DNA of 64,000 nt from Minisyncoccota bacterium (GCA_041671485.1 JBAZBL010000003.1:25412-89411), one strand, 5' to 3'; positions 5,879-59,385 are shown, counted from the stretch's first letter. Notes: generated by a model not told the origin, from the sequence alone. Numbers and translations are program-made.

Positions 5879-6819
5879 GAACCCATATTGTTACAATATC
5901 TGACAAAAACCACCTAGGTAGGATGATAGCACTACGTCAATCGTTAACAGTTCATGCACCAGATTCACATATTTATTATTTATGTCTTGATGATTTGGGA
6001 TATCAAACTGCAAAGAAATTGAACATACCAGAAACAACTATTCTGAGACCAGAGGATCTAAACGATAAAGAGCTCCTAGCCTCACGTTCAACACGAACAA
6101 ATCCGGAATTTGCGTCAACATGTAAACCTGCTTTCTTATTGTTCACAATGAAGAGTGGCATTGTTAGATCAGATGATTTATTGGTATTTGTTGATCCAGA
6201 TTTTTATTTTTATAAATCAGCACAACCTTTATTCGAGAAAGTCTATAGTTTGGGTTCAATAACTATTACTCCGCATCGCTTTCCGCCCAATCGCGAGAAT
6301 GAACAATGCAAGAAAGGTATATATAATGCTGGAATAATGTTTTTTAAAAATGATGATTCTGCCCTCCAATGTTTGGAAGAATGGAGAAAACAATGTATTG
6401 ATTGGTGTTATCTACGTTACGAAAATGGGAAGATTGGCGACCAAGGATATCTGAGTGATTGGCCACGAAAATACAAAGGCGTTTATGAGCTTAGAGATAA
6501 GGGAGTTAACCTTAGTACTTGGAATATTAATAATTACAAAATAACAAAAAATAAAGATGGAGGGTTCTTTGTTGATAATGAACCTCTTATTTGTTTCCAC
6601 TTTCATGGACTAAAATTGTATTTCGACAGAAAAGGTTGTTTACGAGCATACCCTATCACAATATTTCACAAAGAAATATATCGATTGTGCCTTGAAGAAT
6701 TAGAGAGAGCATACGATAAAATACAAACTATAGATTCTTCATGGCGATTTGGTACATTATCACAACTAAACTTATTCAGAATAATAAAACAGACAGTATC
6801 AAGCTATTTTCCACGCTAG
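5875..6819 (+). CDS. GT-A-fold glycosyltransferase-like protein (DXD motif VDPD)
   Basis: 315 aa; Rossmann-like N-terminus (HIVTISDKNHL), a DXD-like VFVDPDFYFY and a conserved HFHG. 4-nt overlap with the upstream gene. Confidence 0.4.
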   Translation: MRTHIVTISDKNHLGRMIALRQSLTVHAPDSHIYYLCLDDLGYQTAKKLNIPETTILRPEDLNDKELLASRSTRTNPEFASTCKPAFLLFTMKSGIVRSDDLLVFVDPDFYFYKSAQPLFEKVYSLGSITITPHRFPPNRENEQCKKGIYNAGIMFFKNDDSALQCLEEWRKQCIDWCYLRYENGKIGDQGYLSDWPRKYKGVYELRDKGVNLSTWNINNYKITKNKDGGFFVDNEPLICFHFHGLKLYFDRKGCLRAYPITIFHKEIYRLCLEELERAYDKIQTIDSSWRFGTLSQLNLFRIIKQTVSSYFPR

Positions 6820-6916: not shown

Positions 6917-8455
6917 ATGAAAACACTCTTAAACACGCAAACTTCGGTTCTTCTAGATAACACCTCAGGAAAAGTCTGTCTCATCATACCACCCTCTCCA
7001 TTTCTATTGGATGAGCGTGTATTCATGTCACTTGGAATTCTCAAGGTCGCAGCCACTCTGGAACAAGCAGGAGTTGATGTTGATGTACTTGATCTCTCTG
7101 GTATCAAGAATTTTCCAGATGTAATCTCTGATTATGTGAGAACTCGAACAGATACTATCTTGTTCGGAATAACATCTACAACACCTCAATTGCCTGCAAC
7201 AACAATAATTGCTCGCACAATACGTTGTTTACGTCCTTGTGCAAGAATTATAATCGGTGGTCCACATGTAACCCTTGTTAATGCTGCATTCAAAAAGGAA
7301 AGACTCCTCGGGCGAAATGGAAGAGCCACTAGAGCGATGGAACAATTAGAGACTTGTTTCGATGTTCTTGTCGCTGGGGATGGAGAGGAAGCTGTTTTTG
7401 GTGCATTGGATGAAAATCCACCCAAATTGATTGATGCTGATATAGTGGACTCACCTCTATTCCTAGACAATGAGCGTCTGACCGCACTTCCTTTCCCTGC
7501 ACGACATCTCATCGACGAAAAAAGCTATCACTATTCTATAGATAGTGTTCCCGCTTTATCACTTATCGCACAGCTCGGATGTCCATTCGCTTGTGGATTC
7601 TGTGGTGGACGAGAGTCTCCATCCCTTCGGAAAATACGCATGCGAACTTCCGAAAACATTGTTGCGGAAATGATCCACATCTACCAAACAACTGGAAAGA
7701 GAGGATTCATGTTGTATGATGATGAGCTCAATGTTAACAGAAACATGGTTCCTCTCATGAATCTTATTGCAAAGACACAGAGAGATCTAGGAGTTACGTG
7801 GCGATTACGTGGTTTCATAAAATCACAGCTTCTTACAGACGAACAAGCCCAAGCCATGTATGAAGCTGGATTCAGATGGATTCTGGTTGGCTTTGAATCA
7901 GGTTCGTCTGACATTTTAGAGGCTATTAACAAAAGAGCAACACGTGATGAGAATACTCGGTGTATGGAAATCGCGAGACGTCATGGGCTGAAAATAAAGG
8001 CACTGATGTCTATTGGTCATCCAGGAGAAAATATTGCAACTATTGAACAAACCAGGGACTGGCTCATTGAGACAAAACCTGACGACTTCGATATCTCTCT
8101 TATTACATGTTACCCAGGAACACCTTATTACGATCAGGCTATCCCATCCCATGGTAAAGATATGGTTTGGGTATATACCTATCCAAATACAGGTGCCAAA
8201 CTGTATCAATACGCTGTTGATTTTATGGAAACAGCAAACTATTACAAGGGCGATCCTGATGGTGGTTACAAAGCATATGTCTTCACGGACGAACTCTCAT
8301 CTGATGATTTAGTGTTCCAACGTGACCGCTTGGAGAGAGAAGTGCGTTCTATTCTTGGTATTCCATTCAATCCGAGTACAAAAGCAGTTCTTTACGAACA
8401 TTCAATGGGACAATGGGGAAAACTTCCTCACAATATTCTTCGTACCAAAGACTAA
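6917..8455 (+). CDS. B12-binding radical SAM protein (class B radical SAM; possible methyltransferase)
   Basis: N-terminal cobalamin-binding-like Rossmann segment followed by the CxxxCxxC radical SAM cluster motif (GCPFACGFCGG). Confidence 0.75.
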   Translation: MKTLLNTQTSVLLDNTSGKVCLIIPPSPFLLDERVFMSLGILKVAATLEQAGVDVDVLDLSGIKNFPDVISDYVRTRTDTILFGITSTTPQLPATTIIARTIRCLRPCARIIIGGPHVTLVNAAFKKERLLGRNGRATRAMEQLETCFDVLVAGDGEEAVFGALDENPPKLIDADIVDSPLFLDNERLTALPFPARHLIDEKSYHYSIDSVPALSLIAQLGCPFACGFCGGRESPSLRKIRMRTSENIVAEMIHIYQTTGKRGFMLYDDELNVNRNMVPLMNLIAKTQRDLGVTWRLRGFIKSQLLTDEQAQAMYEAGFRWILVGFESGSSDILEAINKRATRDENTRCMEIARRHGLKIKALMSIGHPGENIATIEQTRDWLIETKPDDFDISLITCYPGTPYYDQAIPSHGKDMVWVYTYPNTGAKLYQYAVDFMETANYYKGDPDGGYKAYVFTDELSSDDLVFQRDRLEREVRSILGIPFNPSTKAVLYEHSMGQWGKLPHNILRTKD

Positions 8456-10760: not shown

Positions 10761-11804
10761 ATGACAATAGACAAAGATAATCACGCAGAAATATCTATAT
10801 TAGTAACAGGTGGTCTTGGTTTCATCGGAAGCTGTTTTATCGAGATGCTCCTAAAGAAAGGAGATAGTGTTATAAATGTTGATAAAATGACTTATGCAAT
10901 AAGAGAAGACACCAATTTTGAAAAGCATCCAAATTATCAATTCGTTAAAAAAGATATATGTGATCTTAGAGGTTTACCTCAAAATATAAAATATATTGTA
11001 AATTTTGCAGCAGAATCCCATGTAGACAATTCAATAATAAGTACTGCCCAATTTTTCAAAAGCAATGTTCGTGGCGTATATAACTTGCTTGAATTGATAA
11101 GGAGATTACCGAAAGAAAGACGACCTGTATTTATTCAGATCTCAACTGATGAAGTCTATGGTGATATATTGACAGGATCATTCAAGGAAACAGATCCACT
11201 CAAACCCTCTAGTCCATATTCGGCAACAAAAGCAGCAGCAGATCAATTGGTCATGGGTTGGGGAAGGACTTATGGATTGAAATATCGAATAACTAGAAGT
11301 AGCAATAATTATGGATATGGGCAACGTCCAGAGAAATTGATACCAAAAGCAATGAAATTGGCTATGAAGAATGAGAAGATACCAATTCACGGTGATGGTT
11401 CATATCGTCGCGAATGGATATATACAGAGGACAATTGCAGAGCTATAATCCTTGTCATGGAAAGAGGTCTTGATGGTGAAATATATAATATTTCTACTGG
11501 AGAAGAATTCACAAATCTTGAAGTTGTAAAAAAAGTATTGGTAACCATGAATAAACCCAATAATATGTATAGATACGTAACAGATCGTCCAGGACAAGAT
11601 GTCAGATACTATGTCGATTCGAGCAAAATAAGAAGTCTTGGTTGGCAACCCAAAATGACACTCGATCAATATCTACCCATCTGTAAAAAACTGAATGAAG
11701 AAAGGACTCGAAATTTACCCCTCGGAAAAAAAGAACGTTTAGCAAGAATGTTTGGTCTATCAAAACTATTTTATGCCCAACCCAATAAGGAAAATATTCA
11801 ATAA
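10761..11804 (+). CDS. NAD-dependent epimerase/dehydratase, dTDP-glucose 4,6-dehydratase-like
   Basis: VTGGLGFIGS Rossmann motif, DKMTYA, STDEVYGD and the YSATKAAAD catalytic YxxxK. Confidence 0.65.
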   Translation: MTIDKDNHAEISILVTGGLGFIGSCFIEMLLKKGDSVINVDKMTYAIREDTNFEKHPNYQFVKKDICDLRGLPQNIKYIVNFAAESHVDNSIISTAQFFKSNVRGVYNLLELIRRLPKERRPVFIQISTDEVYGDILTGSFKETDPLKPSSPYSATKAAADQLVMGWGRTYGLKYRITRSSNNYGYGQRPEKLIPKAMKLAMKNEKIPIHGDGSYRREWIYTEDNCRAIILVMERGLDGEIYNISTGEEFTNLEVVKKVLVTMNKPNNMYRYVTDRPGQDVRYYVDSSKIRSLGWQPKMTLDQYLPICKKLNEERTRNLPLGKKERLARMFGLSKLFYAQPNKENIQ

Positions 11805-12474
11805 AGCTGGTATCGATCTGCATAGATATCATCCTTCGGCCGATCGTTTGGCTTGGCTTTCTGGTCTCAATATTAAAACGGTCTTTGATACAGGTGCAAA
11901 TATCGGCCAATTCGCAACCGAAATAAGAGAAAGACTTCCATTTGTACAAATATACTCTTTTGAACCAATCAAAGAATGTTACGAAAAATTGATAGTGAAC
12001 TTTGCTAATGACAAGAATTTTCAAGCTTTCAATTGCGCTTTGGGAGAAATAGAGGGATTATTGAATATGAATAAGAGTTCCTATACTCCTAGTTCTTCCC
12101 TTCTTGCTATGGCAGATTCGCACAAACAATTGTTTCCTCATACAAAAGACAATAGATCAGAGTCTATTAGCATTAGGCGTTTGGATGAAGTATCAAATGA
12201 GATCAATGTAGAAAAAGATATACTGATCAAGGTTGATACCCAAGGCTATGAAGACAAAGTCATTGCTGGTGGTATAAAAACATTTTTACAAGCCAAAGTT
12301 GCAATCATGGAAGCATCTTTCATACGTCTATATGAAGGTCAGCCATTATTCGATGATATATATGAAAAAATGAAATCTCTTGGTTTTACATACAATGGAG
12401 CACTACATCAAAAGATCAATCCAAAAACTGGTGAGGTCATATTTGAAGATGCTATATTTGTACGCAATCAATAA
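11773..12474 (+). CDS. FkbM-family methyltransferase
   Basis: TGANIGQFATEIRE and FEPIKECYEKL motifs; start placed at the internal ATG (MPNPIRK). Its 3' end overlaps the convergent GT1 gene by 23 nt. Confidence 0.6.
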   Translation: MPNPIRKIFNKAGIDLHRYHPSADRLAWLSGLNIKTVFDTGANIGQFATEIRERLPFVQIYSFEPIKECYEKLIVNFANDKNFQAFNCALGEIEGLLNMNKSSYTPSSSLLAMADSHKQLFPHTKDNRSESISIRRLDEVSNEINVEKDILIKVDTQGYEDKVIAGGIKTFLQAKVAIMEASFIRLYEGQPLFDDIYEKMKSLGFTYNGALHQKINPKTGEVIFEDAIFVRNQ

Positions 12475-48726: not shown

Positions 48727-48984
48727 TTATTCATACAATTCACTGTGTGAACCAATCTTCAGAAGACGAATCCCATTTGCTTTTATTTCATAAATTACTC
48801 GTATATTTCCAGTCACATTGATACTACGACATCCTAAATACTTGCCATGAAGAGTATGATTATTCAATTCTGGTGCAGTTGGATCTTTCATGAAGATTTC
48901 TAATTTATCATCAAACTTTTGTTGTAATTTGGTTGGTAATTTATCATATTGCTTAACAAATCTCTTGTGAAAATCTATGATCAT
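48727..48984 (-). CDS. relE: Type II toxin, RelE/ParE family
   Basis: 85 aa; HTLHGKYLGCRSINVTGNIRVIYEI...IRLLKIGSHSELY. Confidence 0.75.
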   Translation of the reverse strand: MIIDFHKRFVKQYDKLPTKLQQKFDDKLEIFMKDPTAPELNNHTLHGKYLGCRSINVTGNIRVIYEIKANGIRLLKIGSHSELYE

Positions 48985-49265
48985 GATCTTTTCGAATGTA
49001 GATAACCAATAGCTTCCTTGGCAGAATCAAATGGTCCAACAAAATTCTTATTCTCTTTAGAATCAGCCAGAAGTTCATCCAATACTTTTCTTGTCTTTGC
49101 ATTTGGCATAGGATGGTCAGCAAAAGTGACTTTTCTTTCAGAAATAAATTCCTTTATAAAGCCATTGATAACCGCATTCAGAGACACGCCCAGATCATGG
49201 GCCAGATTTAAAGCCTGATCTTTCAATGTTTTCTCGATTTTCACACTCATCATAGTGATAGTCAT
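48981..49265 (-). CDS. relB: Type II antitoxin, RelB/DinJ family
   Basis: 94 aa; SVKIEKTLKDQALNLAHDLGVSLNAVINGFIKEF. 4-nt overlap with the toxin gene. Confidence 0.7.
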   Translation of the reverse strand: MTITMMSVKIEKTLKDQALNLAHDLGVSLNAVINGFIKEFISERKVTFADHPMPNAKTRKVLDELLADSKENKNFVGPFDSAKEAIGYLHSKRS

Positions 49266-49329: not shown

Positions 49330-52300
49330 TCAATCCTTTTCATTACCAACTTCATCTTCTTTGACTAGCTCCACATTCAAGGCAAGACCTCTAAGAGTCT
49401 TCAAAAGTACATTGAATGATGCAGGCAGATTTGGTGGTTTCAGAGCTTCACCCTTCACGATCGAATCGAAAGTCTGCGAACGACCGATGATATCGTCAGA
49501 CTTGACTGTAAGGATCTCACGTAGTGTATGTGCAGCACCATGCCCCAACAATGCCCAGACTTCCATTTCTCCGAAGCGTTGACCACCTCCTTGTGCCTTA
49601 CCACCCAAAGGTTGCTGTGTAATGAGTGAATATGGTCCGATAGAGCGCATATGGATCTTATCTTCGACCATATGATGCAATTTCATTATATACATATATC
49701 CAACAGCTATCGGTTGATCGAAGTATTCTCCATTTCGCCCATCACGCAATTTCATCTTGCCAGAAGCATCATGTCCCGCTTTTACCAATTCTTCTTTTAT
49801 CTCGGATTCCAAAGCTCCCATAAATGGAGGAACAATGGCTTGATATCCGAGAGTATTTGCAGCAAGACCCAAATGTAATTCGAGGATCTGTCCTAGATTC
49901 ATACGTGATGGCACACCCAGCGGTGTAAGGATGACATCTATAGGAGTACCATCTTCCATATATGGCATATCTTCTTCTGGAAGGATTTTGGATATGACAC
50001 CCTTATTACCGTGACGACCGGCCATCTTGTCTCCTACAGATATATTTCTTACTTGAGCAACTTCTATATATATCTTTTTTATTATTCCTGATTCCAATTT
50101 ATCACCTTTCTCACGTGAGAATATTTTGATAGAAATAACTCGGCCCTGTTTGCCATTTTCCATTCTCTTTGAAGTATCCTTGACATCACGTGCCTTTTCT
50201 CCAAATATAGATCGGAGCAATCGCTCTTCTGGAGTTAGTTGTGTCTCACTCTTGGGAGAAATCTTTCCGACCAATATATCCCCAGGTCTCACTTCTGCAC
50301 CAACCCTTACGATACCTTCTTCAGTCAGATTTTTTAGTTTTGCTTCGCCAACATTTGGTATATCACACGTTGTCACTTCTGGACCAAGTTTTGTATCACG
50401 TACATTGACCAAGAATTCTTCTATATGTATAGAACTCCATTTGGCATTTTTGACTACACGTTCGGATAGAATTATGGCATCTTCATAGTTTGATCCTGAC
50501 CAAGACATGAATGCAACCAAGGCATTGTGTCCAAGAGCTATCTCTCCATGATCAGAAGTCGATGTATCAGCCAAAACATCACCTTTTTTGACCTTCTCTC
50601 CGAGTTCTACTATCGGTCTTTGATGAAATGCAGTAAAACCATTTGTCCTAGAAAATAGGATTAGACTGAAATCTTTTATTCCATTCTTGGTCTTGAGTGA
50701 TATACTTCTGGCATCAACTTTTGTGATCTCACCATCTTCTGGAGCAATCACAATGCGACCAGTTTCTATGATTGCTTTGCTCTCCATGCCCGTTGCAACG
50801 ATCGGCACTTCTGGTACGAGACATGGTGTTGCTTGTTTTTGCATATTTGAACCCATGAGAGCACGGTTTGCATCATCATGATTTAGAAATGGTATAAGTG
50901 ATGTTGCTACAGAAAATGCTTGATTTGCAGAAACATCGATAAGATCAACGTCTTTTTTATTGACTATTGCTGGTTTGCCATTTCTCCTAACTTCGACTTC
51001 ATCAATAGTTATATTTCCAGAATTGTCCCTAGGTATAGCAGCATGAGCAATATTGAAGCTTTCTTCTTCTAGAGCATTAAAATATGAAATCTCTTTTGTG
51101 ATTTTCCCATCTTTGACTTTTGCATAAGGAGTTTCTATCATGCCAAAATGATTGATACGTGCATAGTTGGTCAAGTGCAAAACCAAACCAATGTTTGGAC
51201 CTTCTGGAGTGTGTATTGGGCATAATCGGCCATAATGAGATGGATGGACATCACGTACTTCGAAGCCTGCACGTTCACGAGACAAACCACCCGGTCCAAG
51301 TGCCGACAATAGACGCAGATGTTCGATTTCATCTAGAGTATTGGTCTGTTGCATGAATTGAGAAAGCTGATTGGTAGTAAAAAATTCTTTGATCCTAGCC
51401 TGAAGTGGTCTTGGATAAACAAAAGATATGGGTTGAGTTATATCTGGCTCTATCGTAGACATCCTATCCTGAATATTTCTCTTCATCTGTGTAAGGCCCA
51501 ATCTGATCCTCTGTTCTATCAATTCACCGACATATCTCACACGACGTGAACCCAAATGATCAATATCATCAGCTTGCATTTCCGGATTAACATTCAAAGC
51601 AACAATATGTTTGATCGTTATAGAGAGGTCATTTGTATCTACAGTTCTGCGTTCCAATGATTTCTCATCCATTGTTTTATTGAAACGTTTATTGAAACGG
51701 AATCTACCAACTCGAGAAAGATCGTATCTTTCTACACTCAATATAGCTCGAACAAAAGAACGAGCATTTTCGGCTGTAGCTAGATCACCATCTCGAAGTC
51801 TTTTGTAGATCTCAACATAAGCCTCTTCCTGTGTTTTGGCATGATCCTTGGAAAGAGTAAGTTCAATAGTCTTTTTGGCATCTTCATCGTCTTTGAATAG
51901 GTCCATTATGTCTTCATTTTTCTCTGCACCCAAGACTCGTAGAAGTGAAGTGATGGGGAACTTTCTTTTCCTGTCTATTCTACAATACATCACACCATCA
52001 ATATCAGTCTCGATTTCCATCCATACGCCTCGTGAAGGGATGATCTTTGCACCATAATATACTTTGCCTCTAACGTCATTGGCAGTGAAGAAAACCCCAA
52101 AAGAACGAGCCAATTGTGGTACTATCACTCTCTCAACACCATTTATAATAAATGTGCCGTGGTTTGTCATCAATGGAAAATCTGCAAGAAACATTTCTTG
52201 CTCTTTTACTACATTTAGAGATTTATTTTTGAGTGTTACCTTTATCTTGATCTGTCCTTCATAATTGAGCTTATTGCTTTTTGCATAATGTTCATCGAAC

Positions 52301-52518
52301 TTTGGTTTGATCACTTCGAAACCACCGAGTGAAAGTTCAAACTTCTTTTCAGCATAATCTTTGATTGGTGAGAATTCCTTGAGAAGGTTTGGGATATTTT
52401 CTCCCAAAAGTTGCTTGAATGATGCCGCTTGTGCTTCAACCAAATTGGGCATATCTGCCAATGGAGCCTGATAGCGAGAAAAATATTTTTTTGGACGAGG
52501 AGCATGAGTATTGAACAT
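49330..52518 (-). CDS. rpoB: DNA-directed RNA polymerase subunit beta (RpoB)
   Basis: Start trimmed to MFNTHAPRPKKYFSRY; the ORF-track N-terminal 45 aa look like a spurious extension. Conserved rifampicin region and C-terminal motifs are present. Confidence 0.9.
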   Translation of the reverse strand: MFNTHAPRPKKYFSRYQAPLADMPNLVEAQAASFKQLLGENIPNLLKEFSPIKDYAEKKFELSLGGFEVIKPKFDEHYAKSNKLNYEGQIKIKVTLKNKSLNVVKEQEMFLADFPLMTNHGTFIINGVERVIVPQLARSFGVFFTANDVRGKVYYGAKIIPSRGVWMEIETDIDGVMYCRIDRKRKFPITSLLRVLGAEKNEDIMDLFKDDEDAKKTIELTLSKDHAKTQEEAYVEIYKRLRDGDLATAENARSFVRAILSVERYDLSRVGRFRFNKRFNKTMDEKSLERRTVDTNDLSITIKHIVALNVNPEMQADDIDHLGSRRVRYVGELIEQRIRLGLTQMKRNIQDRMSTIEPDITQPISFVYPRPLQARIKEFFTTNQLSQFMQQTNTLDEIEHLRLLSALGPGGLSRERAGFEVRDVHPSHYGRLCPIHTPEGPNIGLVLHLTNYARINHFGMIETPYAKVKDGKITKEISYFNALEEESFNIAHAAIPRDNSGNITIDEVEVRRNGKPAIVNKKDVDLIDVSANQAFSVATSLIPFLNHDDANRALMGSNMQKQATPCLVPEVPIVATGMESKAIIETGRIVIAPEDGEITKVDARSISLKTKNGIKDFSLILFSRTNGFTAFHQRPIVELGEKVKKGDVLADTSTSDHGEIALGHNALVAFMSWSGSNYEDAIILSERVVKNAKWSSIHIEEFLVNVRDTKLGPEVTTCDIPNVGEAKLKNLTEEGIVRVGAEVRPGDILVGKISPKSETQLTPEERLLRSIFGEKARDVKDTSKRMENGKQGRVISIKIFSREKGDKLESGIIKKIYIEVAQVRNISVGDKMAGRHGNKGVISKILPEEDMPYMEDGTPIDVILTPLGVPSRMNLGQILELHLGLAANTLGYQAIVPPFMGALESEIKEELVKAGHDASGKMKLRDGRNGEYFDQPIAVGYMYIMKLHHMVEDKIHMRSIGPYSLITQQPLGGKAQGGGQRFGEMEVWALLGHGAAHTLREILTVKSDDIIGRSQTFDSIVKGEALKPPNLPASFNVLLKTLRGLALNVELVKEDEVGNEKD

Positions 52519-52750
52519 ATTTGGTGAAAAGATTATTTTGACGCATAAAAATGCCGTCAAATTTAAACGGATTATTAAAACTAATTGCTTTATTATCTCT
52601 TTATCACGGTTTGGATGACTATCCAAATCCTCCGCATTTTGGCCGGAACTCAATCACGGCGAAGTTGTATGTACCCTAGCATATACAAAATCCTCGTCAA
52701 TATTGACATCTGATAACTTGTGTCTTGTAATAAGAATTGAGAGGATCTAA

Positions 52751-53470
52751 TTACTTCCCTTTTCTATTGACTTTCCAATCATTGATCTTTGAATGGTGCC
52801 CACTCAATAAGACTTTTGGTACACGATATTTCTTTTTCCCAAATTCTATAACTTCTGGCCTTGTATAGACATCTGGACTTGCAATCCTCTCTTCTTCGAT
52901 TGATAGTTTATCACCAAGTACACCATCTATTCTCCTTGCAATAGAATCAATAACTATCATTCCAGGCAATTCTCCACCTGTCAGAGTATATGGTCCAACA
53001 GAGATATCTGTCATCTTGAACATCTTCTTTATTCTAGCGTCTATACCTTCGTATCGTCCACATATTAAAATAATATCAGTATATTTTTTTAGTGTGTCCG
53101 CAACCTTGTTTGTAAACTGTTTTCCTGACGGACTAAAAAATACAATCTTTATTTTTTTATTTTTATTTTTTATCTTATTTATCGTCTCTTCTATCGCTCT
53201 TGCGATTGGCAATGCCTCAATAACCATACCCGGTCCCCCACCATATGGTCTATCATCAATTCTTCTTTCTGCATAAGTCATCTTTTTACTTTTTTTCGAA
53301 GGCTTGCCCGCCTCCGCTCGTATGAGCGAGCTTCGGCGTGGTAAAACGAAATCTCTAGGATTGTAATATTCAATCCCAATATATCCTTCTTTTTGCGCTC
53401 TCTTTACTATTGAAACATTGAGATACGATTCGAAGCTTTCAGGAAATAATGTAATTATGTGGAAATTCAT
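52751..53470 (-). CDS. trmD: tRNA (guanine37-N1)-methyltransferase TrmD, carrying a roughly 25-aa GC-rich in-frame insertion
   Basis: MNFHIITLFPESF...DDRPYGGGPGMV...ILICGRYEGIDAR...GGELP motifs. Confidence 0.85.
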   Translation of the reverse strand: MNFHIITLFPESFESYLNVSIVKRAQKEGYIGIEYYNPRDFVLPRRSSLIRAEAGKPSKKSKKMTYAERRIDDRPYGGGPGMVIEALPIARAIEETINKIKNKNKKIKIVFFSPSGKQFTNKVADTLKKYTDIILICGRYEGIDARIKKMFKMTDISVGPYTLTGGELPGMIVIDSIARRIDGVLGDKLSIEEERIASPDVYTRPEVIEFGKKKYRVPKVLLSGHHSKINDWKVNRKGK

Positions 53471-53482
53471 GGGATCTCACAC

Positions 53483-53818
53483 TTATTCCAATTTGAGGTC
53501 TGCCATTGCTTCATCTACAGACTTTGAAGCTTTTAGAGCAGCCGAAGGCATCTGATCCTTGAGTCCTCCAACAGGCTCATTTATCTTGAGGTTAACGCGA
53601 GAATTATTCTTCATACCCACGACACGGAGTAATGTACGGATTGATTTGGCAGTATTGCCTTGACGACCAATAATCTTGCCCATATCTGCTGCAGAAACTT
53701 CGAGAGTAAGCAGTACTCCCATCTCATCTACTGTGCGAACAATCTTGACCTGATCTGGATAGTCTACCAAAGCTTTGATAACCAATTCGAGAAACTGCTG
53801 ATCTGCGTGCTGATTCAT
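53483..53818 (-). CDS. KH-domain RNA-binding protein (YlqC/UPF0109-like)
   Basis: GKIIGRQGNTAKSIR KH motif; sits in the usual position between rpsP and trmD. Confidence 0.7.
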   Translation of the reverse strand: MNQHADQQFLELVIKALVDYPDQVKIVRTVDEMGVLLTLEVSAADMGKIIGRQGNTAKSIRTLLRVVGMKNNSRVNLKINEPVGGLKDQMPSAALKASKSVDEAMADLKLE

Positions 53819-53960
53819 GATATTTATAAGCTAAATTATAATCGTACAGTTCGCTGTACTACAAATATTCTATCAGAAAAATAATTACCGTCAATCGTTT
53901 TTGTTTCAAGTGATAATGTAATATTTTGAATCCTCTTCGGAGGCACCATAAAGTAAGATT

Positions 53961-54992
53961 TTAAAATGACCGCAGATATTCCTCAAGCAATCGGTCATAT
54001 ATTGGTTGCAATATGCACTGATAATTATAGGCATTACCATGCTTTAACATACCCAAATAAGACGAGACTGTTTCGAACTTTGGCTCGTTATTGCATTTAT
54101 TCATCATTCTTCTTCTGGTAGTTGTCCTTAACACCCGATGATCTGGAAAGTGTATCCAGCCCAAAAAGTCAACGCCCGAAGCAAAAGTCTTGAGAAATGT
54201 TTTGTCGGGATGTAATGACAAATGGAGTTTTTCTTTCAAAAATTGGTCCATATCTGTAAGCATAGATAAAAGTAATTTGTGATCAGTGTTAAGGATTACA
54301 AAATCATCGGCATAACGAATATAGTATTTGACTTTGATTTTATGCTTCATGAATTGATCGAATTTATTCATGTAAATATTCGCGAATAATTGAGAAGTTA
54401 AATTTCCTAGTGGCATACCAACATTTGGGTCACCCGAATGAAAACTGTTTATTATTTGATCTAACAGATGAAGAATGTCCCGGTCGGGAATATAGGAATT
54501 GAGTATGTCAAATAATATTTGATGATCTATTGAAGCAAAGAACTTTCTAATATCACATTTCAAAACCCAAACAGTTTTTGTATGATTGCACGATGCTTGT
54601 CTGGCAAACTCGCTAAATTTTTTGAAGGCTCTATGTGTACCTTTGTCGATCCTACAAGAATATGAATCAGAGATGAAAGTTCGGTCAAAGAATGGGTATA
54701 GTTTCCTGTAAAGTGCTCGATGTAAAATTCGATCTCTTACAGTAGCTTTATGGATATTACGAGGTTTGGGATCATTGATTTTGAAGGGCATATATGGACC
54801 ATGTACAAATGTTCTATTTTTCAAATCTTTGTGGAGTTGTAATAGGTGTCTCATTAACTGTAATCGAAATTCAGCTACATCTTCCCTTCTGTCTTTGTCG
54901 GCTGAAAATTCATTCCACGCCTCTAGTAAATTCTCAATGGATATGATAGCTTCGTAGTTATGGCTGAATTGAATTCGTCCCATATTTCTCAT
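53961..54992 (-). CDS. Diversity-generating retroelement (DGR) reverse transcriptase
   Basis: 343 aa; RT motifs including PLGNLTSQLFANIYM (the DGR-type I/LGxxxSQ motif rather than the group II QGxxxSP) and YIRYADDFVIL (YADD). Lies directly downstream of the TR on the same strand. Confidence 0.85.
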   Translation of the reverse strand: MRNMGRIQFSHNYEAIISIENLLEAWNEFSADKDRREDVAEFRLQLMRHLLQLHKDLKNRTFVHGPYMPFKINDPKPRNIHKATVRDRILHRALYRKLYPFFDRTFISDSYSCRIDKGTHRAFKKFSEFARQASCNHTKTVWVLKCDIRKFFASIDHQILFDILNSYIPDRDILHLLDQIINSFHSGDPNVGMPLGNLTSQLFANIYMNKFDQFMKHKIKVKYYIRYADDFVILNTDHKLLLSMLTDMDQFLKEKLHLSLHPDKTFLKTFASGVDFLGWIHFPDHRVLRTTTRRRMMNKCNNEPKFETVSSYLGMLKHGNAYNYQCILQPIYDRLLEEYLRSF

Positions 54993-55017
54993 AATACCCC
55001 CCCCACGGTTTTTACCA

Positions 55018-55404
55018 GTTGTCGAAAAGCTTAAATCAAGCTACAAACTTTGGCATGAATATCACGGACTCGTACCGAAAACACAAAGATATTCGCTTGG
55101 CAATAGAATAGATAATCTCTTAGTAGAAAGCATCGAAGCGACAGTAACTGCGACATTTTTATCAAAAGAAGAGAAATTACCGTGGATACGACTGGCAATT
55201 CGAAAAACCGATACATTGAAAGTTTTACTCATGATTTTATGGGAAACTAAATCAATAGATGATAAAAAATATATTGCTCTTTCTGTGAAATTAGATGAGG
55301 TCGGCAAGATGCTCGGTGGTTGGAGTGGACAGCTTATAAAATCTACCTCTACTAAAACTATAGTGAATAAACAAAACTCTCCAGCAAAAGCAGGAGAGAA
55401 ATGA
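55018..55404 (+). CDS. Avd-like four-helix-bundle protein (accessory variability determinant family) on the opposite strand to the RT; no canonical start codon as sequenced
   Basis: Frame open from 54973 to the TGA at 55402-55404. Translation ...KLKSSYKLWHEYHGLVPKTQRYSLGNRIDNLLVESIEATVTATFLSKEEKLPWIRLAIRKTDTLKVLLMILWETKSIDDKKYIALSVKLDEVGKMLGGWSGQLIK matches the 23S-rRNA-IVS/Avd four-helix-bundle pattern. An ATG at 54960 is one frame off, across a C8 tract. Confidence 0.45.
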   Translation, partial: VVEKLKSSYKLWHEYHGLVPKTQRYSLGNRIDNLLVESIEATVTATFLSKEEKLPWIRLAIRKTDTLKVLLMILWETKSIDDKKYIALSVKLDEVGKMLGGWSGQLIKSTSTKTIVNKQNSPAKAGEK

Positions 55405-55412
55405 AGAGAGTC

Positions 55413-55534
55413 GCCGACACCGCCGCAGGGTTGTTGTCTTTGAAGTCGTTGTCAAGCCAGTTGTAGTTCCAGTCCCACCTGCCGCCGTTCCAGTTGAGGT
55501 AACGAACATAGAGGTTGTCATCGGCGCTGCGGTA
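55413..55534 (-). repeat. DGR template repeat (TR)
   Basis: 122 nt aligning gap-free with 55861-55982. All 17 differences are at TR adenines (sense = - strand). The TR sense strand is rich in AAC codons. Confidence 0.85.
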
Positions 55535-55778
55535 TCGTATGAAGCACCATCCATACCACCACCCCTCGGATACCCTCAGGGCTGAATCGTATTTGGCATC
55601 GTAATGCCTTAGCACCTCATACCAAGTATTTTCATTTTTTAATGAAGTTCTGCATACACCACTCTACCCAAAATCTTGGTCGTGGATATTCTCGATGTAT
55701 GGATACTGGTTTCGGTAGCAAGCAACATTAGTCGCTCACATATTCACCTACTCCCGCCACATCTTACCATATAAATCA

Positions 55779-55802
55779 GCCCCGCGCGTTGTCGCACGGG
55801 GC
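55779..55802 (-). other. GC-rich stem-loop downstream of the VR (candidate DGR homing-enhancing hairpin/cruciform)
   Basis: gccccgcgcg-ttgt-cgcacggggc: 10-bp stem (one C-A mismatch) with a 4-nt loop, about 58 nt beyond the IMH-like end of the VR. Confidence 0.45.
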
Positions 55803-55853
55803 CAAGGTCAAAGGTCACAGGTTCTGAAGAACAAAGTGACTGATGTTCAAGAG

Positions 55854-56474
55854 CTAACTTGCCGACACCGCCGCAGGGTCGAGGCCCCTGAAGTCGTTGT
55901 CAAGCCAGCGGCAGTTCCAGCCCCACCTGCCGCCGCCCCAGCGGAGGCAACGAACATAGAGGTCGTCATCGGCGCCGCGGTAGATGGTCCCCCAGAAGAA
56001 GATGTAGCGGGTGTTTCCGTTTTCATCCTTTTTCCATGCCTCGGGAATGAGGTGCGGGTTCTTCAGGAGATAATCCAAAACATTGGCGTTGAGGACTCGT
56101 TGCTTGGCGAGTTCCTTGCGCAGGTCATTGCCACGGATGGCATTGCCTTTCTTCTGGAGCTTGGACAACCAAAACTCGATTTTCTTGCCATCGAGATAGA
56201 GGTCGTCTCCACGGCATTCGAGCTTGGCAACCTTGCCACTCTGGTGTTCTTCCACCTTCCAGCCGTCAGGAAGGTAGGGGTCGGCACCGAGGTCAATGGC
56301 GTGTTCGATAGGCTTGATTTCATACAAACCCAGTTGGACACCCCTCACACGACCGAGGAAATCCCCGACAGTGAGCGCTTTGACTTCTTCCAGCGATTGG
56401 AAGCCGTTGCGGTTGAGCGCATGCTCGATTTCTTGAGCCAAACCAACACCGAGCGTTAACTTTATATTATCCAT
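55854..56474 (-). CDS. DGR target (variable) protein, 206 aa, with C-terminal VR
   Basis: Intact ORF whose last 40 codons or so are the VR. GC content is far above the genomic background. No obvious signal peptide. Confidence 0.8.
   Translation of the reverse strand: MDNIKLTLGVGLAQEIEHALNRNGFQSLEEVKALTVGDFLGRVRGVQLGLYEIKPIEHAIDLGADPYLPDGWKVEEHQSGKVAKLECRGDDLYLDGKKIEFWLSKLQKKGNAIRGNDLRKELAKQRVLNANVLDYLLKNPHLIPEAWKKDENGNTRYIFFWGTIYRGADDDLYVRCLRWGGGRWGWNCRWLDNDFRGLDPAAVSAS
55861..55982 (-). repeat. DGR variable repeat (VR) at the 3' end of the target gene
   Basis: Cognate of the TR. Encodes YRGADDDLYVRCLRWGGGRWGWNCRWLDNDFRGLDPAAVSA, against TR-encoded YRSADDNLYVRYLNWNGGRWDWNYNWLDNDFKDNNPAAVSA. 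Confidence 0.85.
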
Positions 56475-56539
56475 AATGTGTTCTTTTTCTGTTTCGTGGA
56501 CATGTCCTTTTCGAGGACTGGTCCAAACTGTTGGGCTCG

Positions 56540-56586
56540 CAATTTAGCTTTGCCACAGCAGAGAATGGCCTAAAAAGCTACTTTCT
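56540..56586. repeat. Perfect 13-bp inverted repeat (ttgccacagcaga / tctgctgtggcaa) upstream of the DGR target gene
   Basis: Seen directly; 21-nt spacer; no T-run on either side, so it looks more like an operator or structural element than a terminator. Confidence 0.35.
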
Positions 56587-56784
56587 GCTGTGGCAAATGC
56601 AAGTTAGCATATCAAAGAACTTTACGCTAAAAGTCTATCACACCAATAACTTAAAGTCAAGGGCTTGAATTCACCGAGGAGGAATAATCCCACCTATTTT
56701 GCACTCTATTGAGTAAAGTAGATTTTAAGTTGTTGGTGCTACAGGTGGGGTTGTTACTGAAGCCTCTTTTGCTGTAATCTCAAC

Positions 56785-57135
56785 TTATTCTGACGGAACA
56801 GGTACAGGTTCAGTCACAACCACTTTCGGAGCTTCTTTCACCTCTTCCTTTTTGATCGGAGTTTTCCTAGGTAATGCATTCATCTTTTTGCCAGCAATTA
56901 CCTTCTGCGAAACAAGATAATTGTGAATTGTTACAGATGTTTGTGCACCTTTTGATATCCAATACTTGATACGTTCAACATTCAATTGTTCCAATTTATT
57001 CTTGAGTCTAGAATCATACCAACCCAAATTTTCTAGATATTTACCACTCTTTGGTCCATTTTTGGAATCAGTCAAAACCAACCGAAAAGTTGGTTCGTGT
57101 TTCCTACCAGTGCGTTGCAGTCTTATCATCAACAT
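56785..57135 (-). CDS. rpsP: 30S ribosomal protein S16 (with short C-terminal extension)
   Basis: MLMIRLQRTGRKHEPTFRLVLTDSKNGPKSGKYLENLGWYD is the canonical S16 N-terminus. Confidence 0.85.
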   Translation of the reverse strand: MLMIRLQRTGRKHEPTFRLVLTDSKNGPKSGKYLENLGWYDSRLKNKLEQLNVERIKYWISKGAQTSVTIHNYLVSQKVIAGKKMNALPRKTPIKKEEVKEAPKVVVTEPVPVPSE

Positions 57136-57179
57136 GGCTATGATGCTAACATATACAATCTATTTCTGCAATTGTCTTA

Positions 57180-57335
57180 TAAAAAGCTTGGTGAAATATC
57201 TCTCGAGCCAACACGCAATGCGATCTGAGCCATGAACAAATTGCCCGTATTTGCCGAATCCTTGTAGGCAAATACGGTGCAATTTGGAATGGCGACCTTG
57301 CGTGGAGGCGAGGGAGATATTTCACCAAGCTTTTT
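57180..57335. repeat. Family B structured palindromic repeat, copy B (bidirectional terminator-like)
   Basis: Homologous to 39202-39358 with covarying stems (gcttggtgaaatat/atatttcaccaagc versus gcccaacgaaatat/atatttcgtcgggc; ccgtatttgcc/ggcaaatacgg versus cccatatttgct/agcaaatatgg). T-runs on both strands. Confidence 0.6.
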
Positions 57336-58381
57336 TAGAATTCAGTTACCTTATCACGAATATGTACTTCACTTTCGATACGCATTGCTATTTCTGCCAT
57401 TTCCTTCACCGTCTCTATCGGATATTCACCTATAGCAGTCTCTTCGGATAACATCACTGCATCAGCTCCATCTATGATTGCATTTGCAACATCGGATACT
57501 TCTGCCCTAGTCGGAATAGGATTCTTGACCATAGACTCCATCATTTGTGTTGCAACTATTACCGGCTTATTGGATACATTACATTTATATATTATAGTCT
57601 TCTGTATCAATGGTACTTCTTCGGCTGGAACTTCTATAGACAGATCGCCACGAGCCACCATTATGCCATCTGCTTCTTTTATGATTTCATCAATATCTTT
57701 TAGAGCTTCAGGTGTTTCGATCTTGGCAATGATTCTTGAAGTCAAACCTTTGTCTTTCAATATCTGTTTCAAATGAATTATATCTCCAGCATTGCGTACA
57801 AATGAAAGAGCAACTAGATCAACTTTATTCTTTACACCAAATTCAATGTCTCTCATATCTTTCTCTGTAATAGAGTCTAGTGATAGACCTGCGCCAGGAA
57901 TATTCATGCCAACATTATTCTGGACTTTTCCTCCTATTATTACTTTTGTAATTATTTCATTGCCATTTATTTCCATGACTTCCAATTTCCTTGTACCATC
58001 TTGCAATAAAACAATATTTCCAACTTTGATTTCTTTTGGTAGTCCAGAATGATTGATACTAACGACCTCATTTCCTCCTTCAATATCATCAGTAGTCAAG
58101 GTAAAAGTCTGATCTTGTTTCAATTCTACCATTCCACCTTTGAAAGTCCCTACTCTTATCTTTGGACCACAGAGATCTTGCATTATTTTGATTGATTTGC
58201 CGATCTTCTTCTCTACCTCTTTTACGGTATCAAATCTTCTCTCATGAACTTCAAATTTATCGTGCGAGAAGTTGAATCGCGCTATATCCATACCAGCTTG
58301 TATGAGTTTTTCGATCTTATCAGCACTTTCAGTTGCTGGACCAATAGTACATACAATCTTTGTCTTTTTGGCTATATTCAT
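57335..58381 (-). CDS. pyk: Pyruvate kinase (short form lacking the C-terminal regulatory domain)
   Basis: [10 protein letters not shown]..., [16 protein letters not shown] and the [12 protein letters not shown] motifs. Confidence 0.8.
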
Positions 58382-59385
58382 TGTTGGATTATGATTTGCT
58401 TTACTGGTACTTGTCTCAATAGTTCATTCTTCGAATATATTTCTGGATCAATCATTCTATCAAAACAAGTATTTCCAGATCTATGATTCCAAGAATCATT
58501 GTTGTATTTTAGGTCGGGTGCATTGACATATACTGATGTTGGACCACGGTTCTTCATATCTTCCGATGGTAGTGCAAATATTGCACAAAGTTCAAATGTA
58601 GTATCGCCTTTTTTATTATAAACATAATCAGTATCATCCTTGGGATCTTGTGGGATCAACCATCCAGATATAGGATCATTTGTATCATCCAATACGTTTG
58701 GTAATTTACTCTTATTCTGCCAATAATTGATAATTTGCCATTGAATATTCGTCAAATCATTTACCCTCTGATTGTCAAAACGAAGATTTCTTTGTTTGGA
58801 TGGAGAACCAACTGCTACAAAACCTCCGATAATTCCTGCAATAACTATTATGATACCTATACCTGCAAGTATTTTGCGCAGACTTCTTCGTGTCTCAATA
58901 GATCTTTCAAAGAGATAATAAGCAAATATGATTATAGAAACAATGAGTACAGCCAATATTTTGTATACAAACCGACTAGTTATTTCTCCGTTCAAATATG
59001 TATTTATGAGTGCAATGAGATCAACAATGATAGCTACACCTGCCGAGAAAAGTGTGAGATATATTCTCCAACGACGTATCCATATCTCTCTTTTTTCTGG
59101 TGTTATAGATATATCACGATTCGTTAGCCATTCTAGGATATATAGGATTGGTACAAGGACAATAAGCATAGAGACTGGCCATACGATACTATTGCCATAG
59201 AAATATCCTGCAAGTCTATCAGGAAGAAAATAATTTATCACACTGAAAAGCAAGTTGAGTAAAGCAATCGCTGAAGCATATAGGGCTATAGTTGCACCCA
59301 AATGCAAGAAGAAGTCCTTTGGTGTCATCTTAGGAGATACTGTATCCATAGAAGTAGTGTTTGTCGGTAAATTATTTGGTGGCAT
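58378..59385 (-). CDS. Polytopic membrane protein of unknown function
   Basis: Six or seven TM helices in the N-terminal two-thirds and a hydrophilic C-terminal domain. Confidence 0.45.

Follow-up and report, generated by a model that had tools for sequence, protein, structure and literature searches.

A CPR-type DGR cassette between rpsP and the KH gene of a Patescibacteria genome

We found that a stretch of 64,000 nucleotides from a Minisyncoccota bacterium (GCA_041671485.1 JBAZBL010000003.1:25412-89411), hereafter called the window, carries a complete DGR between the ribosomal protein gene rpsP and the gene of a KhpA-type KH protein. Our reading of the sequence, to which we give a probability of about 0.8, is that a chromosomal CPR-type DGR (target, TR, reversed avd and RT) has entered the space separating the rpsP stop codon from the KH promoter, and that it probably brings promoters of its own. 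The junction would tolerate the insertion because KH and trmD form a unit with a promoter and leader stem-loop of their own; the empty state would be ancestral and the cassette modular.

Results and Discussion

The window is part of a Patescibacteria genome; among named relatives, the closest carries the label Saccharibacteria. In the window, KH and trmD are 12 bp apart and followed by rpoB, and the 2,966 bp from the rpsP stop to the KH start hold the complete DGR with target and VR, TR, Avd and RT (Table 1). The initial annotation had described an insert of about 2.9 kb between rpsP and the KH-trmD genes, and both its location and its size are borne out, with all DGR parts found in the gap. 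The statement that everything is encoded on the same strand proved wrong, as the Avd homologue lies on the plus strand, opposite to everything else. The proposed conserved tight operon stood only in part. When synteny was compared across 66 related loci, in which the genes are all co-oriented, linkage of rpsP and KH turned out to be common, with a median gap of 96 bp and less than 400 bp in 62/66, while KH and trmD are less than 400 bp apart in 41/66 and more than 400 bp apart in the other 25. The bacterial rpsP-(KH)-rimM-trmD-rplS cluster is the "trmD operon" of E. coli. As there, rpsP, the KH gene and trmD are co-oriented neighbours in the window. Unlike the trmD operon, the cluster in the window contains neither rimM nor rplS, rpoB comes after trmD, a conserved promoter-like site and a leader hairpin belong to the KH gene itself, and the KH-trmD junction is interrupted in the 25 relatives mentioned.

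Table 1. Coordinates of the cassette and its flanking genes, counted from the first nucleotide of the window and listed from rpsP to trmD.
Feature	Position	Strand	Basis or remark
rpsP (ribosomal protein S16, 116 aa)	56785-57135	-	Pfam PF00886 Ribosomal_S16, E=3.6e-17; left flank of insertion
Promoter-like site of target gene, sigma-70-like (TTGACT-17 nt-TAGACT, upstream TG)	56632-56660	-	promoter scan
Long conserved hairpin in target-gene 5' leader	56549-56597	-	inverted repeat I4
DGR target gene, 206 aa	55854-56474	-	ORF
VR	55861-55982	-	repeat family D1; 3' end of target ORF
GC-rich hairpin after VR, then T-rich run	55776-55805	-	terminator scan; 13 pairs, 4-nt loop
Extended -10 box TGgTAAGAT just upstream of TR RNA	55761-55769	-	read from sequence
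Structured RNA domain (~210 nt) directly 5' of TR	55537-55748	-	covariation
TR, 122 nt	55413-55534	-	repeat comparison with VR
Stem-loop just 3' of TR, then UUUUGUUU	55377-55398	-	overlaps last avd codons on other strand
avd homologue	about 55009-55404	+	Pfam PF22296 bAvd, E=2.2e-11, 44.6 bits vs cut-off 40
C8/G8 homopolymer between RT start and avd body	54997-55004	.	sequence
DGR reverse transcriptase (RT), 343 aa	53961-54992	-	Pfam PF00078 RVT_1, E=1.2e-23
KH promoter-like site (TTGACG, 16 nt, TAGAAT, upstream TG)	53867-53894	-	promoter scan; right edge of insertion
Hairpin GTACAGCGAACTGTAC	53844-53859	-	starts ~7 nt past KH -10 box
KH-domain protein (KhpA type, 111 aa)	53483-53818	-	Pfam PF13083 KH_KhpA-B, E=1.8e-19; right flank
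trmD (tRNA m1G37 methyltransferase)	52751-53470	-	Pfam PF01746, E=6.4e-33

The empty sites are uniformly tight. In the loci L006 and L010, rpsP and KH are separated by 78-79 bp, and the site of L002, judged from the contig end, reads as empty as well. The -35 box of KH lies 0-7 nt from the rpsP stop, and in L006 it overlaps the stop codon. A DGR at the rpsP junction was found in two other genomes, namely L004, which has the full rpsP-DGR-KH order and 99% rpsP identity to the window across the conserved 94 residues, and L090, whose contig stops inside RT so that its right junction is missing; the RT-KH junction is also present in L005. The left junction falls within the low-complexity tail of rpsP, which cannot be aligned. 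The nearest relative of L090 is the empty L010 (rpsP 98%, PK 84% identical, versus 80% and 65% to the window).

The window comes from a metagenome-assembled genome, and TR/VR repeats can confuse assemblers, so that a DGR contig might have been wrongly joined to a ribosomal contig. The chance of this is vanishingly small. The arrangement is no assembly chimera because an independent assembly (L001, ENA ERZ27249449) matches the window at 100% over 19,990 bp, including an identical VR, and because rpsP-DGR-KH in L004, RT-KH in L005 and rpsP-DGR in L090 come from different samples. It is also quite improbable that the common ancestor of the whole group already had the DGR here and that repeated losses followed, which would turn the insertion into a mere retention. 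Its patchy spread would fit such a history, since of the two close relatives L090 and L010 only the former has the DGR, and since the window and L004 carry it and the similarly distant L006, L002 and L013 lack it. Against it speak the compactness of nearly all related loci and the small minority of DGR-bearing genomes, spread over two lineages; many separate deletions of ~2.9 kb would each have to recreate exactly the same tight anatomy. Searches of the "empty" intergenic regions with nhmmer and tblastn (80 metagenome loci) revealed no remnants of TR, RT or target leader. From parsimony and the anatomy of the junction we argue that the empty site is probably the ancestral state.

Within the cassette, the target gene stands out by a GC content of 0.55, versus 0.36 for the window. 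CPR bacteria encode over 1,000 homologues of its product, which has no Pfam domain match. The AlphaFold2 model (pLDDT 93) gave no significant match in a fold search, only weak matches to C-type lectins (TM ~0.45, E >0.1). VR takes up the final 41 codons of the target ORF (206 aa) and is 86% identical to TR over 122 nt. All 17 mismatches are located at TR adenines, 17/31 of which are changed in VR, and 16 of the 17 changes affect codon positions 1-2. The final 18 nt of TR (CCCTGCGGCGGTGTCGGC), GC-rich and IMH-like, are identical to the VR end. The predicted hairpin behind VR corresponds to the post-VR hairpin of DGRs and resembles a terminator; its place is kept, with different sequence, in L004, L089, L090 and L091. 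Upstream, the leader hairpin has 22 predicted pairs, 10 of them with compensatory changes in an alignment of 8 target leaders. The close relative L004 has the predicted target-gene promoter in unchanged form, and in 9/10 target modules checked the motif TTGAC[AT]-N17-TAnAnT is present 130-200 nt before the target gene.

The region encoding the TR RNA is preceded by its own -10 element, as it is in all relatives compared, and aligned TGCTAGAAT or TACAAT boxes are found before the TR RNA in L004, L090, L091, L093, L100 and L103. The structured domain directly 5' of TR contains 52 pairs, of which 35 show compensatory changes among 8 sequences. Here, 94% of cells are paired, versus 39-50% when the partners are slid, and 0/500 shuffles reached the observed values. 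The domain has no Rfam match, and a limited survey of the DGR literature gave no mention of such a structured RNA 5' of TR. The stem-loop 3' of TR has 9 pairs, 6 with compensatory changes in 9 sequences. A stem-loop downstream of TR has been described as Avd-binding (bioRxiv 10.1101/2023.10.23.563531); by analogy with this element, which it matches, the stem-loop of the window is a candidate Avd-binding element and/or terminator. For the avd homologue, we found no in-frame ATG, GTG or TTG before 55216, and upstream of the helix-1 region no canonical start; at the putative start position the window has TTA where L089 and L100 have TTG. The adjacent homopolymer tract varies in relatives from C6 to C12. 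RT contains the motifs LGNLTSQ (residue 195) and YADD (residue 227).

The layout TR-(avd)-RT, called B3, accounts for 90% of CPR DGRs (PMC5758913, Wu et al. 2018) and is found in the window and in the same form in L004, L090, L091 and L100. DGR clade 2 occurs in Patescibacteria only (Roux et al. 2021, PMC8144416). The window DGR shares with CPR B3/clade 2 DGRs the order and orientation of target, TR, reversed avd and RT, the single short target with C-terminal VR and no recognisable domain, and an RT that is 60-67% identical to thousands of Patescibacteria (CPR) RTs. The element is a standard CPR-type DGR of known class; among its distinctive traits is the setting between rpsP and the KH gene. 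Like the prototype DGR of Bordetella phage BPP-1 (mtd-avd-TR-brt), it shows TR-to-VR differences that are specific to adenines, encodes an Avd homologue and has a GC-rich IMH-like end, a hairpin after VR and a stem-loop just downstream of TR. In contrast to BPP-1, avd is inverted, so that the sequence 3' of TR is antisense to avd, and the large conserved RNA domain is on the 5' side of TR, whereas the BPP-1 spacer (Sp) is on the 3' side. Moreover, the window DGR is chromosomal, in a tiny-genome bacterium, and that of BPP-1 resides in a phage.

At the right edge of the insertion, the KH promoter-like site is conserved in the empty-site relatives L002 and L006 and is present in 59/75 relatives, versus 9.8 expected by shuffling. 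Just behind it is the hairpin GTACAGCGAACTGTAC, which had been noted between RT and the KH gene. The hairpin is real, but it is located at 53844-53859 rather than 53848-53863 and it is no DGR feature. Its sequence also occurs in L002, L004, L006 and L010; the pattern GTACAG, 3-6-nt loop, CTGTAC is matched in 13/75 relatives, and others have longer loops. The hairpin passes a lax terminator scan (6 pairs, 3 GC, tail GATTATAATT). Because it comes shortly after a conserved -10 box and empty-site relatives have it too, it is probably better described as a leader stem-loop of the KH mRNA than as a terminator. In the ompA and aprE leaders, 5'-terminal mRNA stem-loops stabilise the transcripts. The GTACAGCGAACTGTAC hairpin resembles them in lying at the predicted mRNA 5' end, and it is conserved with variable loops. 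It could also serve S16 or KhpA as a site of autoregulation.

The initial annotation had further suggested that DGR expression is coupled to the rpsP transcript. If target, TR RNA and RT were made by read-through from a strong rpsP promoter, diversification would be tied to the growth rate. Target, TR and RT do share the strand of rpsP, KH and trmD, and the terminator scan found no site between the rpsP stop and the target gene, for which reason read-through from rpsP into the target gene is possible. DGRs of the same RT family also lie directly upstream of tuf-rpsJ-rplC on the same strand (L100), near rpsT (L098) and next to metG (L089), and ribosomal protein genes have been noted inside five CPR DGRs (PMC5758913), which likewise counts for coupling. 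We nevertheless regard coupling as unlikely, and our data lend it no support. Target gene, TR RNA and KH gene each have a conserved promoter-like site, avd is opposite in strand to rpsP, and two terminator-like stem-loops within the cassette, the 13-pair GC hairpin with T-rich tail after VR and the stem-loop with UUUUGUUU after TR, would limit read-through; these promoters and terminators are consensus matches supported by conservation. In addition, the target module keeps the same promoter in L091, L093, L100 and L103, loci without ribosomal neighbours, and L091 and L103 show that the DGR family works in unrelated contexts.

The comparison with L004 points to a modular build of the inserted cassette. 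The two loci are 99% identical in rpsP and KH, 98% in rpoB, 93% in Avd and 90% in RT. The window target, though, finds no tblastn match in L004 (BLASTP E=0.08), and the TR is different. Instead, modules in L091, L093 and L096 match the window target module at 79-81% nucleotide identity, and the RT of L091 is only 55% identical to that of the window. Because L004, with its 90%-identical RT, has a different target and TR, we infer that another target/TR type has taken the place of a block that starts in the target leader and stops at the TR 3' end, with RT, Avd and the flanks kept. The predicted breakpoints are the conserved leader and the TR 3' end with its stem-loop. The VR-TR spacer shares 83.5% identity with L004 and 77-79% with L091 and L093, which fits one replacement event or two. 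Such a block differs from the published pattern in which the VR class generally follows the RT tree (PMC5758913).

One may ask whether the junction is even a preferred landing or exchange site, with cassettes spreading between lineages by homologous recombination through conserved translation-gene flanks (rpsP/khpA here, tuf/S10 elsewhere) and with target and TR payloads being swapped in conserved non-coding RNA elements. The breakpoints just described would agree with this, as would the occupation of the same junction in two lineages whose nearest relatives are empty, with 80% identity between L090 and the window in both RT and rpsP and 65% in PK. Other inserts are also found at this junction (pyrF plus a phosphoribosyltransferase-like gene in L086, a 137-aa ORF in L078), and about 5/8 independent DGR loci, by hand count, have a translation-related neighbour. 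Yet this sample of DGR loci is small and non-random, and such neighbours are often to be expected in CPR genomes, given their small size and wealth of translation genes. The incomplete right junction of L090 and the rpsP tail at the left junction also weaken the case, and no recombinase or att-like repeat was seen. We therefore hold a preferred exchange site to be a tentative proposal, less probable than a plain insertion at a tolerant junction.

Conclusion

In summary, we describe a DGR cassette at the rpsP-KH junction for which the conserved motifs suggest the following working. The target promoter would drive a unit of leader hairpin, target ORF and VR that ends at the GC hairpin, and the extended -10 promoter would drive a non-coding RNA composed of the ~210-nt structured domain, the 122-nt TR and the short stem-loop with U-run, while avd would be read divergently from RT. 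Following the Bordetella phage paradigm, RT and Avd would reverse-transcribe the TR RNA, making errors at adenines, and the resulting cDNA would replace VR. On the right side, the KH-trmD unit would keep its own promoter and leader stem-loop intact. The DGR thus has the appearance of an accessory cassette, placed at a gene junction that tolerates it, and not of a mutator wired into ribosomal-protein expression. More speculatively, the CPR DGRs of this clade may be exchangeable modules bounded by conserved RNA elements, one reaching from promoter and leader over target and VR to the hairpin, the other being a TR RNA made of the previously undescribed ~210-nt domain, TR and stem-loop. Recombination at these elements might give a resident RT/Avd a new target and TR, and the cassettes might prefer junctions in conserved translation-gene clusters (rpsP/khpA, upstream of tuf-S10, near rpsT, metG), the flanks of which would allow transfer between lineages.

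Results and Discussion

As the initial annotation had proposed, a diversity-generating retroelement (DGR) with target gene, template repeat (TR), avd and reverse transcriptase (RT) lies between rpsP and the gene for a KhpA-type KH protein; the features are collected in the table. The target gene ends in a variable repeat (VR) that forms a 122-nt direct repeat with TR. The two copies differ at 17 positions, each of which is an adenine in TR, so that 17 of its 31 adenines are altered, and 16 of the 17 changes fall at codon positions 1-2. Such adenine-only differences are the signature of a DGR template and variable repeat and, read from the sequence, show that the element has been active in the past. 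The RT motifs and the match of avd to bAvd bear out the rest of the inventory. The assumption that all parts run in the same direction is wrong: avd is encoded on the plus strand, the other DGR parts on the minus strand. Target, TR, reversed avd and RT follow one another as in architecture B3, which accounts for 90% of CPR DGRs (Wu et al., PMC5758913); such elements form a Patescibacteria-restricted clade with targets without known domains (Roux et al., PMC8144416). The window DGR belongs to this already known CPR type.

Features of the rpsP-DGR-KH region (window coordinates unless a related locus is named)
Feature	Position	Strand	Evidence or remark
DUF5671 protein	58378-59385	-	ORF and Pfam
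Pyruvate kinase	57335-58381	-	ORF and Pfam
rpsP	56785-57135	-	ORF and Pfam
Target promoter-like site	56660-56632	-	TTGACT-17-TAGACT, upstream TG
Long target-gene 5' leader hairpin	56549-56597	-	equivalent place in 7 other target modules
DGR target ORF, 206 aa	55854-56474	-	ORF; no Pfam domain
VR	55861-55982		end of target ORF
Non-coding stretch	between target ORF and RT
Extended -10 box	55769-55761	-	TGgTAAGAT; 3' of post-VR hairpin; TGCTAGAAT or TACAAT in relatives
Structured RNA domain, ~210 nt	55748-55537	-	directly 5' of TR; no Rfam match
Structured RNA equivalents	L004 1546-1785; L090 1972-2210; L091 6770-7032; L093 11868-12115; L098 110-350
TR	55413-55534
Replaced block	~55413-56628		L004 ~719-1870
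Stem-loop, 9 pairs, then UUUUGUUU	55398-55377	-	3' of TR; covaries in 9 sequences
avd (bAvd homologue)	~55009-55404	+	score above Pfam cut-off
RT	53961-54992	-	motifs LGNLTSQ and YADD
Hairpin GTACAGCGAACTGTAC	53844-53859	-	KH leader
KhpA-type KH protein	53483-53818	-
trmD	52751-53470	-
rpoB	49330-52653	-

The arrangement is not an assembly chimera. An independent ENA assembly of the same genome (L001, ERZ27249449) is identical to the window over 19,990 bp, including the VR; the rpsP-DGR-KH order recurs in the close relative L004 (a Logan contig from another sample), whose RT-KH junction is also found in L005, and the rpsP-DGR junction recurs in the NCBI MAG L090 (GCA_038061925.1). The MAG proteins carry the NCBI label "Candidatus Paceibacterota", and the named genome contig nearest to it carries the label uncultured Candidatus Saccharibacteria (TrmD 72%, RpoB 83% identity). 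We assign the window to Patescibacteria.

Because a TrmD search of genome contigs gave two loci only, one of them distant, we built the synteny set from a KH-protein scan of metagenomes and exact-protein look-ups, which furnished 66 loci with both rpsP and KH. The median distance from rpsP stop to KH start is 96 bp, and only four loci exceed 400 bp: the window's own genome (2,966 bp), L004 (2,835 bp), L086 (2,173 bp) and L078 (604 bp). The gap of L086 (3822-5994) holds genes for OMP decarboxylase and a phosphoribosyltransferase-like protein, that of L078 (2970-3573) a 137-aa ORF without Pfam match. In the empty sites L006 and L010 (Ga0265595_1000050) the gap is 78-79 bp; L002 appears empty as read from its contig end. 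The rpsP-KH linkage is thus conserved in relatives, and the comparison supports the view that the window DGR was inserted into a conserved junction. The description of rpsP, KH and trmD as one tight operon is overstated, since KH and trmD lie more than 400 bp apart in 25 of the 66 loci and rimM and rplS are outside the window's cluster. Less than 8 kb from the DGR, a type II toxin-antitoxin pair (48727-49265, minus strand; toxin with a YafQ/ParE match, E=8.6e-11, antitoxin with a weak RelB match) is another accessory insert between two core genes: rpoB and rpoC lie 701 bp apart in the window versus 19-190 bp in 15 relatives.

How did the junction come to be filled? L090 carries a related DGR directly 3' of rpsP, with an RT 80% identical to that of the window. 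Its nearest relative among the loci is the empty L010 (rpsP 98%, pyruvate kinase 84% identity), while it shares only 80% and 65% with the window for the same proteins, so that the junction is occupied in two lineages. An old DGR that was precisely lost again and again would also give filled and empty sites side by side; this seems unlikely, because the tight layout is the same from one empty site to the next and a search of the 80 metagenome loci found no remnants of a DGR. On these comparisons the junction was more likely filled by independent gain, or by a transfer that used the conserved flanks for recombination. The right junction of L090 is missing from its contig, and exact mapping by alignment of filled and empty sites failed on the left side, where the low-complexity C-terminal tail of rpsP is unalignable.

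Other DGRs of the same RT family likewise adjoin translation genes: immediately upstream of, and co-oriented with, tuf-rpsJ-rplC-rplD-rplW-rplB (L100, 2609-9035), beside ruvA and rpsT (L098, 869-2885) and beside pth (L103, 2547-5555). The sample of DGRs beside translation genes is too small for a statistical test; ribosomal protein genes have been reported inside five CPR DGRs (PMC5758913).

We next turn to expression, which the initial annotation had suggested to be coupled to the rpsP transcript. The target promoter-like site and the next 60 nt are identical in L004. Of the 10 target modules checked, 9 have an equivalent promoter ahead of the target gene, among them modules without ribosomal neighbours, and in most cases a conserved hairpin in the leader comes after it. 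This hairpin (22 predicted pairs, 10 with compensatory changes), preceded by the conserved box AAGYTCYTTGATA, is present in both target types, that of the window and that of L004. Behind VR stands a 13-pair GC hairpin with a T-rich tail. At the far end, the hairpin between RT and KH is real, yet its position had been given wrongly, and it is no part of the DGR. It begins about 7 nt past the -10 box of a promoter-like site, TTGACG-16-TAGAAT with upstream TG. Promoter and hairpin are both present in L002, L006 and L010, where the site is empty; the -35 box and the rpsP stop codon overlap in L006. Of 75 relatives, 59 have the pattern TTGnnn-N16-18-TAnnnT no further than 120 nt from the KH start, where shuffling predicts 9.8, and many relatives keep a GTACAG-loop-CTGTAC stem with varying loops. 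The hairpin therefore belongs to the KH leader. We infer a 5'-terminal stabilising or regulatory stem-loop, which may also act as a weak terminator.

The cassette thus appears to have its own promoters and stops, with KH keeping its own promoter, which would explain why the site tolerates the insertion. Coupling to rpsP is then not needed, and the predicted promoters for target, TR RNA and KH together with the terminator-like stem-loops leave that proposal unsupported. Some read-through from rpsP into the target gene is possible, since a terminator scan found none between the two. Upstream of rpsP, between genes, lies a 38-nt inverted repeat (57181-57335; 87% complementary, arms 79 nt apart); an overlapping match to a plant microRNA precursor was below the Rfam threshold and was taken as chance. 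Rfam otherwise gave nothing relevant for 52500-57500 at E up to 1, and only one tRNA for the whole window at gathering scores.

The comparison with L004 revealed a further change. The two genomes are 99% identical in rpsP and KH, 98% in rpoB, 90% in RT and 93% in Avd; the window target, in contrast, gave no tblastn match in L004, a BLASTP match of E=0.08 only and a profile comparison of just 8.7% probability, confined to the C-terminal half, and the TRs differ in sequence and length. The L090 target is of the L004 type (48% identity). The window target module (~56628-55800) is 79-81% nucleotide-identical to those of the related loci L091, L093 and L096; the window TR shares 81% identity with that of L091, whose RT is only 55% identical. 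With flanks and enzymes alike and target and TR unlike, the block from target leader to TR 3' end has, by these identities, been replaced in the window's lineage; the breakpoints map to the conserved leader and to the 3' end of TR. Either a single event with the spacer conserved or two separate events may account for this; the spacer RNA identities (83.5% to L004, 77-79% to L091/L093) fit both. Wu et al. (PMC5758913) found VR classes to follow the RT tree in general, with limited resolution for CPR, and the replacement is a fine-scale exception to this rule.

Both target types occur in L093: a window-type target without adjacent RT (6001-6618), with a partial inverted copy of the TR-upstream RNA nearby (7183-7310), and, 5 kb away, an L004-type target beside spacer RNA and an Avd remnant (11152-12245). 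L089, a contig from Hainich groundwater, encodes a close RT relative (84% identical) and, after it, an additional target-like gene of 217 aa that is GC-rich and has the family promoter and post-VR hairpin (region 1499-2763). Two 89-nt copies of the 3' end of RT (74% identical) flank this gene, with metG next, and it may be what is left of a second DGR in tandem.

More than 1,000 proteins across Patescibacteria belong to the target family, which has no Pfam domain. The AlphaFold2 model is confident (pLDDT 93), and a fold search of PDB and BFVD gave no significant match; C-type lectin domains recur among the weak structural matches of the model (TM ~0.45). Target genes and TRs have a GC content of 0.52-0.58 versus 0.35-0.40 for RT, avd and host genes, in three genomes and both types (window; L004 831-1469; L090 1236-1865). 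Recent foreign origin was considered as the cause, but L004 and L090, with their different target types, show values just as high, so the GC content is no simple transfer signal.

The RNA that starts from the extended -10 box is predicted to consist of the ~210-nt structured domain, TR and the 9-pair stem-loop. Across 8 sequences the domain has 52 pairs, 35 of them with compensatory changes; 94% of cells are paired versus 39-50% with partners slid, and none of 500 shuffles reached the observed values. Full-length matches adjoin a TR in the loci examined, while partial copies lie close to an isolated target in L093-L095 and, in L096, at the end of the contig; a 20-nt-specified motif from this RNA gave no match in a viral-contig scan. 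The 3' stem-loop matches the Avd-binding stem-loop predicted just 3' of TR for most Avd-containing DGRs by Handa et al., who looked at only 40 nt upstream of TR (bioRxiv 10.1101/2023.10.23.563531). By analogy, the ~210-nt domain could be the CPR counterpart of the Bordetella phage RNA scaffold that positions the template on RT-Avd.

In every family member a C/G homopolymer of 6 to 12 nt separates the start of RT from the body of avd (54997-55004 in the window; equivalents in L004, L089, L090, L091 and L100). A reading of the C8 tract as an avd frameshift relative to L004 was rejected: the upstream ATG that seems to open avd ('MAELNSSH') is the complement of codons for the conserved N-terminus of RT, and 5 of 6 family members do not have it in frame. 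No canonical in-frame start was found in the window. Translation of avd likely starts at TTG in L089 and L100; the same position reads TTA in the window, L004, L090 and L091.

Conclusion

Further work would best be directed at the recurrent site, the replacement of target and TR, and the RNA domain upstream of TR. Filled and empty versions of one site in close relatives, in two lineages, provide a natural before/after pair, useful for dating and tracing DGR acquisition. The swap of target and TR with RT and Avd staying is a clear case counter to the rule that VR follows RT, and the covariation-supported RNA 5' of TR in the dominant CPR architecture may likewise be of use to DGR specialists. 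DGRs are very common in CPR bacteria, and the one described here seems able to drive its own expression. What its position illustrates is a place where accessory DNA can fit into a very compact genome, not a new regulatory link.
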